DNA of 64,000 nt from a virus. Under the pieces are notes generated by a model. That model was not told the DNA's origin and searched no databases. It saw nothing but the letters and a program-made list of their open reading frames with translations. Below, piece after piece: positions 52,970-60,447 of the stretch. The position numbers were made by a program, and so were the translations under genes. Each line of letters opens with the position of its first letter. The stretch's first letter is position 1. Location: the IMG/VR virus record IMGVR_UViG_3300045988_175607, positions 111,956-175,955 of that record; one strand, 5' to 3'.

Positions 52970-53695
52970 ATGGCATTGATAGATATAACAAATCAAAAAT
53001 TTGGACGACTTGTTGTTTTGTATAGAGATAGAGAAGCAGAAATAAAAAGAAAAAGTAGAAACGCAATGTGGCGATGTCGTTGTGAATGTGGTAATGAAGT
53101 GAGTGTTGTGGGTAAGGATTTACGCTCAGGAAAAACTTTATCTTGTGGATGTTTACAAAAAGAAAGAGCTTCACAAGCAAATAGTAGTAATTTAATTGGA
53201 CAACGTTTTGGTAAATTAGTAGTAATAAAACAAGTTGTTTCTGAAAAGCATCGCTCAAGATGGTTATGTAAGTGTGATTGTGGTAATATGGTTGAAGTAA
53301 AAGCCCGCGAATTATAGAGGGGGGATACTCAATCTTGTGGATGTTTGTTTTCTGCTGGAGAAGCAAAGATATCTCAAATATTGGCAGAACTACAATTGGA
53401 ATATAAAAAAGAATATATTTTTAAAGATTATCCAACTGCCAGATTTGATTTTGCTCTATTAAAAAATAAACAGGTATATTGTCTTATTGAATATGACGGT
53501 CCTCAACACTTTATTAATACTGCTAATTCTGGTGGATGGAATACTATTGAAAGATATAAAACAATTACCCATCCTAAAGATTTAGAAAAAAATAAGTATT
53601 GTCAAGATAACAATATCCCTCTTATTAGAATTCCTTATAATGACTATAACAATTTAACGAAAGAATGGCTTGAAAGGAAAATAAATAATGTATAA
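52970..53695 (+). CDS. putative endonuclease: N-terminal zinc-binding repeats plus C-terminal Vsr/DUF559-like PD-(D/E)xK domain; one in-frame TAG at 53315-53317
   Basis: ORF-track 52970-53317 and 53345-53695 are in one frame across TAG (…KAREL-TAG-RGDTQSCGCLFSAGEAK…); repeats W.C.C.CGN and C-terminal LIEYDGPQHF. Confidence 0.5.
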
Positions 53696-55085
53696 AGCTT
53701 ATATAACTTATGTAAAAAATATTCGTCCTGCGGAAAACTCTGATTTTCTTAATGCTTGTGAAGTATTTGGTAATACAACTATTATTGATAAAACCATCAC
53801 TGAAGATACTCTTGTTCTTTATTTTCCTTCAGATGGTCAAATTTCTATAGAATTTGGTGAGAAAAATAATCTTTTTAGAAAGAAAGATGATGCTGGTAAC
53901 AATATTGGTGGTTTTGTTGACCCCGTTAAAAGAAATATTACCGCAATTCGTTTAAGGGGTAATCGTTCAGATGGTTTAGTATTACCCATTTCGTGTTTAA
54001 ATTATTGCTATACTCATGATAATGCTTCTGCTGAATTACATGCTGGCGATATAATTAATGGAACTCTTAATGGCCATGAAATATGCTGTAAGTATATTCC
54101 GGTTGTAAAAAATAAAGCTTCCAATAAAGCTAAGAAGTGTAATAAAGTGCGCAAGCACATAGCTCCTATTGCTCCCTTGTTTATAGAACATGCAGATACT
54201 GAACAGTTGAATTATAACCTTGATGCGTTTAAGTCTGGCGATCAAATAGAGATAACTCTCAAGATGCATGGCACTTCAAATCGAGTGGCATATGTTCCAG
54301 TTCTTAAGAGATTTAAGCGAACTCTGTTTGACCGTATATTTGGTCGCGAAGGCAAACCTATATATGAATATGACTATATAAGCGGAACTCGTAGAACTGT
54401 ACTTGATAACTTTGATGGTGGCTTTTATGGAAGTAATGCTTTCCGCAAGCAGTTTGAAGATCGACTGCGCGGCAAGCTCTATAAAGGCGAAGAGGTTTAC
54501 TTTGAAATCGTGGGGTTCACTGATGCGGGCATACCGATTATGCCAATAGGGGATAATAATAAGGTCGGTAAGGATTTTGTAAAACAGTATGGTGAAAAAA
54601 CTGTATTTAGTTACGGTTGTGAAGTGCCGCAGTCTGAAATGTATGTCTATCGCATGACTATGACTAATGAGGATGGCGATGTAGTAGAATATTCTCCTGA
54701 CTTTATGCGCTATCGCTGCGAGCAAATAGGTGTAAAGACTGTGCCAGTTTTTTACAAGGGCTATATACCGGAAGAATATACTGAAATAAATACTCGACTC
54801 GATAATCATATTGTAAAAATAGCTAATTATATTACTCCTGGCGAATGGGTAAAAGATTTAGCTGAGGAATATTATAACGGCCCCGATCCGATAGGTAAGA
54901 CTCATGTGCGCGAAGGTGTGGTAGTTCGTATCGTCAATAGGCCTAAGTTCTGCGCGTATAAAACTAAGAATTTCTCATTTAAGCTGGTCGAAGGAATCGT
55001 GAAGGAGAGTGCACAAGCGCCAGATATGGAAGAAGCGCAAGATTTATTGATTGAAAATGAGGAGGAAATACAAAATGACGAGTGA
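53688..55085 (+). CDS. ATP-dependent RNA ligase (Rnl2-like, KxHG motif I)
   Basis: Motif I ITLKMHGTSNR (compare T4 Rnl2 KIHGTN), motif III YFEIVGF, motif IV REGVVVRIV, motif V CAYKTKNF. Confidence 0.65.
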   Translation: MYKAYITYVKNIRPAENSDFLNACEVFGNTTIIDKTITEDTLVLYFPSDGQISIEFGEKNNLFRKKDDAGNNIGGFVDPVKRNITAIRLRGNRSDGLVLPISCLNYCYTHDNASAELHAGDIINGTLNGHEICCKYIPVVKNKASNKAKKCNKVRKHIAPIAPLFIEHADTEQLNYNLDAFKSGDQIEITLKMHGTSNRVAYVPVLKRFKRTLFDRIFGREGKPIYEYDYISGTRRTVLDNFDGGFYGSNAFRKQFEDRLRGKLYKGEEVYFEIVGFTDAGIPIMPIGDNNKVGKDFVKQYGEKTVFSYGCEVPQSEMYVYRMTMTNEDGDVVEYSPDFMRYRCEQIGVKTVPVFYKGYIPEEYTEINTRLDNHIVKIANYITPGEWVKDLAEEYYNGPDPIGKTHVREGVVVRIVNRPKFCAYKTKNFSFKLVEGIVKESAQAPDMEEAQDLLIENEEEIQNDE

Positions 55086-55224
55086 TGATTTGATTGAACG
55101 CCTTAAGCTTGACCTTGAATGGGCTGAGGCAAATGAATGGGAGACTCCAATATGTCTTTCAGATGATTTGCTTGAGGCAATTGAATATATTAAATGGGCT
55201 AATGATGTAATTAAGGGAATATAA
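55075..55224 (+). CDS. small acidic protein (49 aa), overlaps the ligase 3' end
   Basis: ATG within caaaATGacgagtg; followed by terminator aaactgggataaaaaatcccagttt. Confidence 0.35.
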   Translation: MTSDDLIERLKLDLEWAEANEWETPICLSDDLLEAIEYIKWANDVIKGI

Positions 55225-55312
55225 AATAAACTGGGATAAAAAATCCCAGTTTATTTTTTTATAAAAATGTAATATAATATATATAAAGAAAAGGAAAAAG
55301 GAGAAAAGAAAA

Positions 55313-55576
55313 ATGGATAGTCGTTATAATACTTTGGTTCTTACCCCTGAAGGTCTTGATAAAGACGAAACTCTTGAAGCTCTTCTTGGCAAACAGCTTG
55401 CAATTCTTGCAAAAATGGGCTACATATGCACCGTTGAACGAGAATGTGATTTCTATGTAATTCATTATAATTATAGAGATCAGAGTTATGGAACTCCTTA
55501 TCCCTATTGGCTCACTGAAGATGAATATATGAGTGCAACTCTTGAAGGGGAGGATAATGATAGTGATGAAGAATGA
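55313..55576 (+). CDS. acidic hypothetical protein (87 aa)
   Basis: RBS aaaggagaaaagaaaa. Confidence 0.5.
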   Translation: MDSRYNTLVLTPEGLDKDETLEALLGKQLAILAKMGYICTVERECDFYVIHYNYRDQSYGTPYPYWLTEDEYMSATLEGEDNDSDEE

Positions 55577-58880: not shown

Positions 58881-58886
58881 AAGGGT

Positions 58887-59168
58887 GTGATTTATATGAA
58901 TTATTCTTACTTGGTAAAAGGCTATATTCTTAATCCTCAATGGAAAAAAGGCAGCCTTAATGAAAAAACGCAAACAGATAAACTTCCATTTGGAATTTAT
59001 TTTTCATCAGCTTGGCCTTCAATAAAAACTGATTTGCAATATCAACACGTTTCTACTTTTATAAAAACTGAAATTCTTTATCGTTCAAAAATTTATCCTG
59101 ATTTGGATGATTTTTCTAATTATGTATTTACTATATATGATGGGGTGGAAACTGATGGCCAGAAATAA
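58887..59168 (+). CDS. hypothetical protein (93 aa)
   Basis: RBS aaaagggtgtgatttat. Confidence 0.5.
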   Translation: MIYMNYSYLVKGYILNPQWKKGSLNEKTQTDKLPFGIYFSSAWPSIKTDLQYQHVSTFIKTEILYRSKIYPDLDDFSNYVFTIYDGVETDGQK

Positions 59169-59421
59169 TTTTATTATAAACAGTTTTTATTGTATGAGTT
59201 GTGGTCAAAAAGGTTTTGACTTGCCTCGTAAGAAAAGTCATCAGCATGATAAATTTCATAGAAAGGTTTTATATTGCCCTTGGTGTAAAAAAGAAGTCAA
59301 TCATATAGAATGTCGAACTCCAGAAGAAGTAGAAGAATTTAAGAAAAATTTTGAAGAAGGAGTATATAAAGATGAAGCAGAAGCCAGTTTGGATTTTGTG
59401 CGGAGCTCCAGGTTGCGGTAA
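59152..59421 (+). CDS. zinc-finger small protein (CMSCGQ...CPWCKK)
   Basis: ATG 59152 after ggggtggaaactg; in the frame of ORF-track 59107. Confidence 0.45.
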   Translation: MMARNNFIINSFYCMSCGQKGFDLPRKKSHQHDKFHRKVLYCPWCKKEVNHIECRTPEEVEEFKKNFEEGVYKDEAEASLDFVRSSRLR

Positions 59422-59893
59422 GTCCACTTTCGCGCGCAATTATCTTAAAACCCATGCCGGAGTATTGATTTCCCGTGACAAAATACGTTTAGCTCTTTTA
59501 AATGATAGTGATGATTATTTTGCTAATGAAGATCAAGTATTTATAGAGTATATACGTTGGGCGCAAGATAAGCTAAACGATGAAAAATGTGTAGGCCCTG
59601 TTATTATGGATGCTACTCAAATTAACGAGCGCAGCCGCAAAAAAGTTTATAATAAACTTAATAAAAATAATATAAGCGAAATACATTATTTTTATTTTAC
59701 CACTCCTTTTAACACTTGCTGGGAGCGCAATTCAAAGCGTCAAGGCCGCGAATTTGTACCTAAATCATCCATCCGCCGTATGTATTTGTCTATGACTGAC
59801 CCAATAAATGATTCAAAAATAAATACTCCAGTAATAATACATTATATAGATGAATATGGAAATGAGGTAAAACGAACATGGATACACCAATAA
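59372..59893 (+). CDS. polynucleotide 5'-kinase (T4 Pnk kinase-domain-like P-loop kinase)
   Basis: Walker A WILCGAPGCGKST; SKRQGREFVPKSSIRRMYLSMTDP closely parallels T4 Pnk [23 protein letters not shown]. Confidence 0.7.
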   Translation: MKQKPVWILCGAPGCGKSTFARNYLKTHAGVLISRDKIRLALLNDSDDYFANEDQVFIEYIRWAQDKLNDEKCVGPVIMDATQINERSRKKVYNKLNKNNISEIHYFYFTTPFNTCWERNSKRQGREFVPKSSIRRMYLSMTDPINDSKINTPVIIHYIDEYGNEVKRTWIHQ

Positions 59894-60447
59894 TATATGT
59901 AACTTCAGACACTCATTTTAATCATCCGCGCGATTTTCTTTTTGCCCCTCGTGGTTTTAGTTCATGTTTTGAACATGATATGCAAATAATTAAAAATTGG
60001 AACTCAGTGGTTAAACCCAATGATATTGTTTATCATCTTGGCGATTTGGGAATGGGCACTGATTATGATTATCTTATTAATTGTATCAATCAATTGAACG
60101 GTACAATTTATTGGATTCGAGGCAATCATGATGGAGACAAAAAAGTAGATGCACTTACTACTCGTTGTTCCAATCTTGTTTGCGTAGGATACGCGACCAT
60201 GGTAAAATTCCACAAATATCATTTTTATCTTTCACATTTTCCGACTGCGGTCGGCAATTATGATGATGAAGAAAAACATTCAAAATTTTATTGTCTTTGT
60301 GGCCATAGTCATTGTCAAGATAAATGGAAAGATTTTCACACTATGAAGTCTTACCATGTGGAGCTAGATGCTGCAAATAATTTTCCTATTCCTCTTGAAC
60401 AAATAAGAGAAGAAATATCCAAAAGAAGAAAAAATGAAGAAGCTTGA
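59878..60447 (+). CDS. calcineurin-like metallophosphoesterase adjacent to the kinase (candidate end-healing phosphatase)
   Basis: VTSDTHFNH, HLGDLG, IRGNHD motifs; start overlaps the kinase stop. Confidence 0.65.
   Translation: MDTPIIYVTSDTHFNHPRDFLFAPRGFSSCFEHDMQIIKNWNSVVKPNDIVYHLGDLGMGTDYDYLINCINQLNGTIYWIRGNHDGDKKVDALTTRCSNLVCVGYATMVKFHKYHFYLSHFPTAVGNYDDEEKHSKFYCLCGHSHCQDKWKDFHTMKSYHVELDAANNFPIPLEQIREEISKRRKNEEA

Follow-up and report, generated by a model that had tools for sequence, protein, structure and literature searches.

We analyzed a 64,000-nucleotide stretch of a gut phage genome (positions 111,956 to 175,955 of IMG/VR record IMGVR_UViG_3300045988_175607; hereafter, the window). 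It encodes a putative system for healing and sealing RNA ends, with an RNA ligase, a polynucleotide kinase, and a metallophosphoesterase. The source phage genome is ~176 kb, and the window's DNA is part of a 176 kb metagenome contig in ENA, which is identical across the stretch compared. The close relatives are gut-metagenome contigs of 160–180 kb, one of which was binned with a Clostridium metagenome-assembled genome. In its final 18 kb, the window has + strand genes one after another, in AT-rich DNA (34.6% G+C). An earlier annotation that was made from the sequence alone (the original prediction) placed the three core genes in this region, and we found all three at the positions it gave, on the + strand (Table 1). 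Each of these genes starts with ATG, has a purine-rich stretch directly 5', and ends with TAA or TGA. In searches with hidden Markov models (HMMs), RNA_ligase, AAA_33, and Metallophos each matched the expected gene.

The ligase matches the Pfam family RNA_ligase (PF09414; E = 8e-9) and phrog_968 ("RNA ligase"; E = 3e-59). The motifs that first marked it as a ligase (KMHGTS, FEIVGF, EGVVVRIV, and KTK) are all present, and the motif positions are TLKMHGTS at 190, SGTRR at 232, VYFEIVGF at 270, EGVVVR at 409, and YKTKNF at 424. K192, G195, R235, E273, E409, G410, and K425 are invariant in 41 ligase sequences that are 16–57% identical to the window ligase, and K192 is the predicted adenylylation lysine.

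The original prediction described this ligase as Rnl2-like, which we had to revise. Rnl2 proteins (T4 Rnl2 and REL1) have a C-terminal domain and no OB domain, and the window ligase is the reverse: it has an N-terminal OB module (approximately residues 1–135), a linker, a nucleotidyltransferase (NTase) domain with inserts, and no C-terminal domain. Nor is it an Rnl1, so it differs from both of the T4 ligases. Instead, its motifs correspond one-to-one to those of DraRnl from Deinococcus, which were mapped by mutagenesis (PMC1807946). Motif I is TLKMHG in the window ligase and TEKLHG in DraRnl; motif Ia is SGTRR and SK, respectively; motif III is VYFEIVG and VQIFGEVV; motif IV is EGVVV in both; and motif V is YKTK and SVK. 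Given these motifs, the fold (below), and the OB module, we consider it to be an Rnl5-type ligase with inserts and not an Rnl2-type ligase. The DraRnl model TIGR02306 matches residues 8–210 (E = 5e-12), and only the N-terminal half aligns. Because the score (45.4 bits) is below the equivalog cutoff of 151, we describe the protein as having Rnl5-type architecture and as belonging to a distinct long-form clade, and not as an equivalog of DraRnl.

A search of the PDB with phmmer and the single ligase sequence found no match; profiles were required. With a profile built from 41 diverse homologs, the best match was NgrRnl from Naegleria (E = 2.5e-13), across residues 3–194, which run from the OB module through motif I. 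T4 Rnl2 was matched more weakly (E = 6e-4) and only in the NTase core. We also modeled the structure with AF2. An alignment of 35 sequences, all over 67% identical, gave an unusable model (pLDDT of 46), while a diverse alignment of 70 sequences gave a pLDDT of 91 and a pTM of 0.89. In this model, the chain after motif V is just two helices. When we compared the model to solved structures with Foldseek, all of the NgrRnl entries ranked first (E of ~1e-15 to 3e-17; target TM of 0.69–0.72), with the whole chain covered. The matches to T4 Rnl2 (E = 1e-7; target TM of 0.37–0.41), to REL1 (E = 3e-7), and to the ligase domain of CthPnkp (E of 0.02–0.09) were far weaker.

The window ligase thus shares with DraRnl and NgrRnl an N-terminal OB domain followed by the NTase domain, the lack of a C-terminal domain, the motif I pattern T-x-K-x-H-G, and the fold of the whole chain. 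On the other hand, it is only 16–17% identical to NgrRnl, and inserts in the NTase domain make it longer (465 amino acids, versus ~340 for DraRnl or NgrRnl). It also belongs to a large clade from mostly phages. This family has 1,996 clusters at 50% identity (~2,000; E ≤ 1e-3), and it includes 379 records from cultured phages. Homologs with the PHA02142 OB domain are found in Bacillus phages (~45% identity) and in mycobacteriophage Cjw1 (28% identity), and the PF21189 OB domain was also detected in homologs. Separately, four of the homologs (P0244, P0251, P0252, and P0267) have ~790–813 amino acids and contain an insertion of ~350 amino acids right after the motif I lysine, so that the alignment picks up again from query residue 193 at about residue 550. 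The insertion, at the catalytic site, looks like an intein or another mobile element.

The kinase is similar to AAA_33 (E = 2e-18) and to phrog_505 ("polynucleotide kinase"; E = 3e-22). TIGR04075 matches at its N-terminus, in the kinase part only (E = 4e-12; 45 bits versus a cutoff of 750). Using phmmer against the PDB, the best matches were T4 Pnk (1ly1; E = 2e-8), Pnkp1 (4xrp; E = 1e-7), and the kinase domain of CthPnkp (4gp7; E = 7e-6). The kinase has K17 and S18 in the P-loop, and its D36, R39, D80, R119, and R123 align to D35, R38, D85, R122, and R126 of T4 Pnk, all of which are essential in T4. The resemblance of the C-terminal block to T4 Pnk, which had been noticed by eye, is borne out by the phmmer alignment. 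So this protein is a clear homolog of the kinase domain of T4 Pnkp, with identical catalytic residues. The T4 kinase, however, is fused to a HAD phosphatase (DxDxT), while the window's phosphatase is a separate metallophosphoesterase gene. A Pfam scan of the 173-amino-acid kinase found no HAD domain; HAD_PNKP was seen in the Pnkp of Cjw1.

The metallophosphoesterase gene lies directly 3' of the kinase gene and overlaps it by 16 nucleotides, in agreement with the original prediction. The protein matches Metallophos (PF00149; E = 9e-9, above the family's cutoff) and phrog_547 (E = 3e-38). The motifs of the calcineurin-like superfamily (DxH, GD, GNH[DE], H, and GHxH) are all present, and the metal ligands D11, H13, D56, N83, H84, H120, H143, and H145 are invariant across 24 homologs. 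We infer that this protein is a 2',3'-cyclic phosphodiesterase and/or 3'-phosphatase, that is, a healing enzyme.

Together, a kinase and a binuclear metallophosphoesterase are the same healing pair as in the bacterial Pnkp proteins of Pnkp-Hen1 (from Clostridium thermocellum) and Pnkp1-Rnl-Hen1 (PMC3675462, PMC4411300), and the kinases are related. The original prediction called the window's pair a split Pnkp. This is apt as a description of function, but not of descent. A profile of the phosphoesterase family, compared to solved structures, matched aq_1665 from Aquifex (1xm7; E = 2e-12) and GpdQ (E = 1e-4), and no chain of Pnkp, Pnkp1, or lambda phosphatase was matched at E ≤ 1. The best 120 homologs are all stand-alone proteins, mostly of ~180–190 amino acids with a few of up to 247, and none of the 120 has a kinase domain. 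By these profile comparisons, the phosphoesterase belongs to an aq_1665-like stand-alone family, which lies outside the lambda-phosphatase-like branch of the superfamily that bacterial Pnkp uses. Bacterial Pnkp also differs in having the kinase, the phosphoesterase, and the ligase in one polypeptide instead of in separate genes, and its ligase is of another clade. When we scanned ~20 open reading frames (ORFs) at 46–64 kb of the window against Pfam, PHROG, and NCBIfam, none of them matched a Hen1-like methyltransferase domain.

The linkage of these three genes is not a chance feature of the window, as it recurs in many divergent phage contigs. In the relative L008, whose ligase is 73% identical, the gene order is DUF2828 – NTase – phosphoesterase – SHMT – exonuclease – ligase – Band_7 – major vault protein (MVP) – kinase – phosphoesterase. 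Compared to the window, L008 lacks a homing endonuclease gene and has an extra Band_7 gene. Another relative has RlaP and, further along, the ligase, Band_7, and a 305-amino-acid kinase protein. More distantly, we examined three contigs whose phosphoesterases are 46–49% identical to the window's. In all three, the gene for an AAA_33 kinase of ~160 amino acids abuts or overlaps the phosphoesterase gene, and an RNA ligase is encoded only a few kb away. One of these contigs has an Rnl1-type ligase, and the other two have ligases of PF09414 (one with the PHA02142 OB domain).

For a broader view, we used the phosphoesterase to retrieve 80 loci from IMG/VR and scored their ORFs with purpose-built HMMs. 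We counted features in the 77 loci with upstream DNA, across the fetched locus (up to 8 kb on each side of the phosphoesterase). Because these 77 loci are not phylogenetically independent, and many are from one sample, we take the counts as a sign of recurrence and not as a statistic. In 63/77 loci (82%), the kinase gene immediately precedes the phosphoesterase gene, and in 72/77 a kinase is somewhere in the locus. An RNA ligase is present in 59/77 loci (47 Rnl5-like and 12 Rnl1-like). Other recurring genes encode an RlaP-like NTase (20/77), a DUF2828 protein (16/77), an MVP homolog (11/77), a second metallophosphoesterase (11/77), or a DEDD exonuclease (8/77).

Relatives of the ligase that are found beside other types of phosphatase tell a similar story. 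In Bacillus phage Thrax1, a kinase-HD "polynucleotide kinase" follows a ligase of the same family (45% identity). In mycobacteriophage Cjw1, a T4-like kinase-HAD Pnkp (gp89) is 1 kb upstream of a same-family RNA ligase (gp93). In both of these phages the phosphatase is fused to the kinase, unlike the separate metallophosphoesterase of the window. This ligase family thus retains a kinase-plus-phosphatase partner while the fold of the phosphatase varies. This fits a modular pattern of RNA repair that has been described previously, in which calcineurin-like and HD phosphatases replace HAD in some large phages (PMC7824862).

The genes might instead be neighbors that do not share a pathway. For instance, the phosphoesterase might degrade cyclic-nucleotide defense signals, and the P-loop protein might be a nucleotide kinase. 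The phosphoesterase family is common in phages without an annotated kinase neighbor, and its nearest solved relatives are an uncharacterized protein and a promiscuous phosphodiesterase. But the kinase gene is directly upstream in 82% of the related loci, where its stop codon often overlaps the start codon of the phosphoesterase gene, and the kinase retains the counterparts of the acceptor-site residues D35, R38, and R126 of T4 Pnk instead of the features of nucleoside monophosphate kinases. We therefore view this explanation as highly improbable.

Table 1. Features of the window. Coordinates are those of the 64,000-nucleotide stretch.
Feature	Coordinates	Strand	Evidence or note
Interrupted tRNA-Lys(UUU), with a complete tRNA-Asn(GUU), CCA included, inserted at U36|A37	29723..29876	+
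tRNA-Lys 5' half, ending at U36	29723-29760
Embedded tRNA-Asn including CCA, 76 nt	29761-29836
tRNA-Lys 3' half	29837-29876
DUF2828 + DUF7788 protein (DUF2828-vWA)	46526..48013	+	PF25043 E = 7e-43; PF11443 E = 3e-26; phrog_850 "RNA-binding protein" E = 4e-126
Pol-beta-fold NTase, RlaP-like, GS...DxD motif	48668..49471	+	phrog_388 E = 2.5e-19
Second metallophosphoesterase	49471..50268	+	Metallophos E = 6.5e-10; phrog_1649 E = 5e-22
DEDD (RNase T-like) 3'-5' exonuclease	51702..52517	+	PF00929 E = 2.4e-15
Homing-endonuclease-like gene, free-standing	52970-53695	+	Zn-ribbon repeats; DUF2726 / EDxHD-type nuclease domain
ATP-dependent RNA ligase, Rnl5-type architecture, 465 aa	53688..55085	+	PF09414; phrog_968; TIGR02306 (N-terminal half); fold
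NTase-to-ligase unit	ends 56109	+	predicted terminator
MVP homolog, 813 aa	56367..58808	+	MVP_shoulder E = 8e-20; Vault_3 E = 2e-10; PF11978 and PF17795 above cutoffs
MVP unit	ends 58814	+	predicted terminator
Stand-alone polynucleotide 5'-kinase, T4 Pnk type, 173 aa	59372..59893	+	AAA_33; phrog_505; alignment to T4 Pnk
Stand-alone binuclear metallophosphoesterase, 189 aa	59878..60447	+	Metallophos PF00149; phrog_547; metal-ligand motifs
Kinase-phosphoesterase unit	ends 60436	+	predicted terminator
Terminator-like hairpin closing the kinase-phosphoesterase unit	60436..60469	+

The neighboring genes form a conserved island around this core, which terminator prediction divides into three transcription units (Table 1). 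Upstream of the ligase, we confirmed the pol-beta NTase and the second metallophosphoesterase that had been reported there. The NTase scores just 13 bits against RlaP (PF10127; gathering cutoff of 23 bits; E = 0.07). However, 5 of 6 aligned homologs of the NTase do match PF10127 (best E = 2e-6), the GS...DxD motif is conserved, and the NTase is 39% identical to an RlaP-flagged protein of the contig L006. RlaP from Pseudomonas adds 1–2 nucleotides to damaged RNA 3' ends (PMC12776372), and the window's RlaP-like NTase probably restores 3'-terminal nucleotides on damaged RNA. The gene for the second metallophosphoesterase overlaps the NTase gene by 1 nucleotide, and this pair of genes is kept in L008. 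It is possible that this second enzyme is an alternative for cleaning ends.

The DUF2828 protein is a candidate for an RNA-binding scaffold of the island. In the contig L012, its gene adjoins the kinase-phosphoesterase and ligase genes. Searches of the PDB with the DUF2828 protein (by phmmer) and with the NTase did not give an informative match for either. The MVP homolog is collinear with rat and human MVP for ~450 residues (residues 325–774 align to 342–802 of MVP; E = 1e-13 from phmmer against the PDB). Its gene, which is also at the syntenic position in L008, forms a transcription unit of its own that separates the ligase's unit from that of the kinase and phosphoesterase. The MVP homolog is a candidate for a scaffold or a shell. 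In a literature search on major vault protein in phages, the phrase was absent from the 10 best-ranked matches.

The original prediction also included a homing-type endonuclease beside the ligase. The gene is real: it lies between a 140-amino-acid ORF and the ligase gene, overlaps the start of the ligase gene by 8 nucleotides, and contains one in-frame TAG. Because it is missing at this site from the syntenic locus L008, we consider it to be a lineage-specific insertion and not part of the toolkit. As a separate observation, the relatives encode a Band_7/SPFH protein (290–297 amino acids) between the ligase and the MVP or the kinase (e.g., L008 12383–13255); the window has no ORF of this size at the corresponding position (55260–56366). 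Also, a PIN_4 domain protein (E = 1e-12), possibly an RNA endonuclease, is encoded at 62996–63445. Its gene follows the kinase-phosphoesterase pair at a distance of 2.5 kb and has a syntenic counterpart in L008.

The gene for the DEDD exonuclease is in the ligase's transcription unit and is syntenic in L008. The exonuclease is a possible source of end-trimming activity. Its place in this unit also counts in favor of another explanation, in which these enzymes process ends in the phage's DNA metabolism instead of repairing host-damaged RNA: during replication or repair, they would seal nicks with ribonucleotide-containing 3' ends or clean up DNA ends. Action on DNA ends is also known for T4 Pnkp. 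Within duplexes, both DraRnl and NgrRnl attach an RNA 3'-OH to DNA or RNA with a 5'-phosphate, and Deinococcus becomes more sensitive to radiation when DraRnl is lost (PMC1807946, PMC5397189). Against a role in DNA metabolism, the linkage to RlaP-like NTases and to the DUF2828 "RNA-binding protein" is recurrent, and Rnl1-type ligases, which are the type involved in tRNA repair, interchange with Rnl5-type ligases in the same cassette context. On balance, a DNA-directed function seems quite improbable.

Our preferred explanation is that the gene set is a phage system of separate genes for the healing and sealing of RNA ends, which counters host ribotoxins. We would put the probability of this at roughly 70%. 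The RNAs that are mended are probably tRNAs. In this system, host ribotoxins (such as anticodon nucleases and other metal-independent RNases) would cut tRNA or other translation RNAs. The metallophosphoesterase would open and remove the cyclic phosphate or 3'-phosphate to give a 3'-OH. The kinase, with its close sequence and active-site similarity, would phosphorylate the 5'-OH. Finally, as suggested by its conserved motifs and fold, the ligase would adenylylate itself at K192, move the AMP to the 5'-phosphate, and seal the break. The RlaP-like NTase may replace nucleotides that were removed by "smart" ribotoxins, as Pseudomonas RlaP does (PMC12776372). Along with the NTase, the second phosphoesterase, the DEDD exonuclease, the DUF2828-vWA protein, and the MVP homolog probably broaden the range of damage that can be repaired or organize the reaction.

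The domain identities, the catalytic residues, and the recurrent genomic linkage are directly established. Several points weigh against this explanation. The activities are predicted from sequence for members of these exact families. The characterized Rnl5 enzymes seal duplex nicks with an RNA 3'-OH strand and are not known to act on breaks in tRNA anticodon loops, and the physiological role of Rnl5 is described as uncharted (PMC5397189). Besides the absence of Hen1 from the ORFs scanned, we did not identify a host anticodon nuclease. The phosphoesterase family is found in over 1,100 records from cultured phages, and in at least one of these, Staphylococcus phage S25-3, it has no annotated kinase adjoining it. 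The ligase gene and the kinase-phosphoesterase pair are on different predicted transcription units, with the MVP gene between them. And, as noted above, the counts across loci are of related sequences.

The window also contains a potential substrate. As the original prediction had noticed, a tRNA-Lys is interrupted at the anticodon loop, and we found that what separates U36 from A37 is an entire tRNA-Asn (Table 1). Exact removal of the 76-nucleotide tRNA-Asn recovers a canonical tRNA-Lys(UUU); the sequence of the spliced junction would read ...CUCGACUUUU through U36 and continue with AAUCGAG... from A37. In its minimum-free-energy fold, the 154-nucleotide precursor forms one cloverleaf within another (z = -3.7). 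Contig L032 has the identical arrangement. In contrast, the tRNA-Lys at exactly that site is uninterrupted in two relatives, L013 and L033, and compensatory changes distinguish its stems from those of the window's tRNA-Lys. As for the total number of tRNA genes in the window, ARAGORN found nine, and the interrupted tRNA-Lys is the tenth, which makes ten genes at nine positions instead of the eleven at ten that had been counted.

For this nested tRNA, a scan of IMG/VR with the exact pattern of the 5' junction had no matches, and a scan of JGI metagenomes with a degenerate junction pattern had 16 matches, all of which were ordinary tRNAs. Among cultured phages, no blastn match covered more than 49% of the query. 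We then took all 154 tRNAs of the fetched loci, deleted potential inserts, and refolded them, which identified one further nested case, in contig L010. At L010 2835–2979, a tRNA-Lys(UUU)-like gene is interrupted between U34 and U35 by a tRNA-Trp(CCA) that has no CCA end. This contig is unrelated to the window, and ~2.5 kb downstream of the site it has a kinase-phosphoesterase-RlaP cluster, with an Rnl1 ligase as a further member. This case is weaker: the host tRNA has a mismatch in the T-stem, and the fold (z-score of -1.0) is no better than that of shuffled sequence. When we looked for relatives of the L010 case, the sole locus that we found had no tRNAs.

These nested genes raise another explanation, namely that the ligase, with or without the healing enzymes, splices the phage's own tRNA-Lys. 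The tRNA-Asn would be excised by RNase P and a 3'-end nuclease, and the ligase would re-join the two tRNA-Lys halves, which stay base-paired, between U36 and A37. RNase P cleavage leaves a 3'-OH, which a classic ligase needs. The nested gene is real, it has the predicted nested-cloverleaf fold, the split tRNA-Lys retains all four of its stems with compensatory changes relative to the intact orthologs, and the second case is on an unrelated contig that also encodes a kinase, a phosphoesterase, RlaP, and Rnl1. However, the tRNA-Lys is intact in L013 and L033, and L033 and the complete island of L008 are on one and the same contig. This implies that the island is older than the insertion and hence is not a dedicated splicing kit. 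The module is also widespread in phages without a nested tRNA (there were 3 nested matches for the 154 tRNAs). An encoded CCA blocks RNase Z, and as the gene for the tRNA-Asn includes the CCA, it is hard to explain a clean cut at the 3' side. The L010 case not only has the weaknesses described above, but also lacks a CCA and has a different insertion point (between U34 and U35). Finally, the interrupted gene may be dead. Overall, we consider splicing by the phage's ligase to be unlikely. It would entail an "intron" that is itself a functional tRNA, with splicing by a protein ligase of the Rnl5 type after ordinary tRNA-end processing, and we doubt that this occurs. We found no description, for bacteria or phages, of tRNA expression via protein-ligase splicing around an embedded tRNA.

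Both of the nested hosts are tRNA-Lys(UUU), which is suggestive: either the insertions are tolerated via re-joining by repair, or the genes are dead. That the insertions persist because the repair system re-joins the broken tRNA-Lys seems a long shot, and the interrupted tRNA-Lys is a speculative candidate for a natural substrate of the repair set. The original prediction had left open whether this is a toolkit for tRNA repair or for tRNA splicing. We favor repair, and given the intact tRNA-Lys of L013 and L033, splicing is not needed to account for the genes. Overall, what stands of that prediction is the three types of enzyme, their linkage, and the interrupted tRNA-Lys, and what we would drop or revise is the assignment to Rnl2, a split Pnkp in any sense but that of function, the membership of the endonuclease, and the splicing purpose.

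We noticed several other features of small RNAs in these genomes. Between the tRNA-Lys and the next tRNA, there is a sub-threshold match to the type-P1 twister ribozyme (38–39 bits versus a gathering score of 67), both in the window (30018–30072) and in two relatives (L013 6482–6537 and L033 6567–6621). The low score is mainly due to a missing optional stem. One stem has a compensatory pair change, and the 110 nucleotides after the match are also highly conserved. Sub-threshold matches to GOLLD RNA (80–84 bits versus a gathering score of 150) are found in more distant relatives, just upstream of a tRNA-Gly (L014 10318–10750 and L015 9854–10294).

A tRNA with a CTA (amber-reading) anticodon is encoded at 48080–48154 and is conserved in L008; it has a consensus promoter-like site and a terminator to itself. 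In-frame TAG codons are found in SHMT (50432–50434), in the homing endonuclease (53315–53317), and in a beta-helix repeat protein (61634–61636). The TAG in SHMT aligns to a glutamine in an ortholog, and the TAG in the endonuclease is within a repeated Cys motif. Also, just 4 of 70 long ORFs on the + strand use TAG as the stop codon. This looks like amber suppression, probably to glutamine. We had considered this RNA, a "tRNA-Pyl," as a Y-RNA-like partner of the DUF2828 protein, because it is just 3' of the DUF2828 gene, it has its own promoter-like site and terminator, and the tRNA model in Rfam misses it. Given the in-frame TAGs, we dropped this idea in favor of an amber-suppressor tRNA. The 3' trailers of this tRNA and of a tRNA-Thr share the motif GCCTT(C/T)TCGTGGCG (at 48155–48190 and 44082–44115, respectively), which could serve as a processing signal or form a small hairpin.

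Among known systems, the logic of the proposed pathway is that of phage T4, in which Pnkp and Rnl1/Rnl2 repair tRNA-Lys after it is cut by PrrC: a 5'-kinase, a 3'-end phosphatase, and an ATP-dependent ligase. The shuffling of ligase, kinase, phosphoesterase, RlaP NTase, and scaffolds as modules matches the "syntax" of RNA repair described by Iyer et al. 2021 (PMC7824862). That survey noted calcineurin-like phosphatases in a few large phages, but it mentions neither vault proteins nor this two-gene kinase/phosphoesterase cassette. Thus, the repair strategy and its modularity are already known, having been anticipated by comparative genomics. The new aspects are the two-gene cassette of a kinase and an aq_1665-like phosphoesterase, its coupling to a large and uncharacterized clade of Rnl5-type ligases, and the company of an MVP homolog.

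If the ligase does splice the nested tRNA-Lys, then this would be a new kind of tRNA gene organization, and the junction would be a specific product in vivo. It would then follow that tRNA insertions may be tolerated in the anticodon loops of tRNA-Lys in particular because broken tRNA-Lys is what this repair system naturally acts on, and the physiological substrate of a phage Rnl5-type ligase would be identified. With an MVP homolog co-located, it also seems that the vault-like proteins of phages may operate in a setting of RNA repair. More broadly, RNA repair by phages has been worked out experimentally mainly for T4. Here, a clade of ~2,000 clusters of Rnl5-type ligases is tied by its gene neighborhoods to a polynucleotide kinase and to interchangeable phosphatases, which makes a role in the repair of nuclease-damaged RNA directly testable, and the stand-alone kinase and the aq_1665-like phosphoesterase are an uncharacterized healing pair that is common in gut phages.

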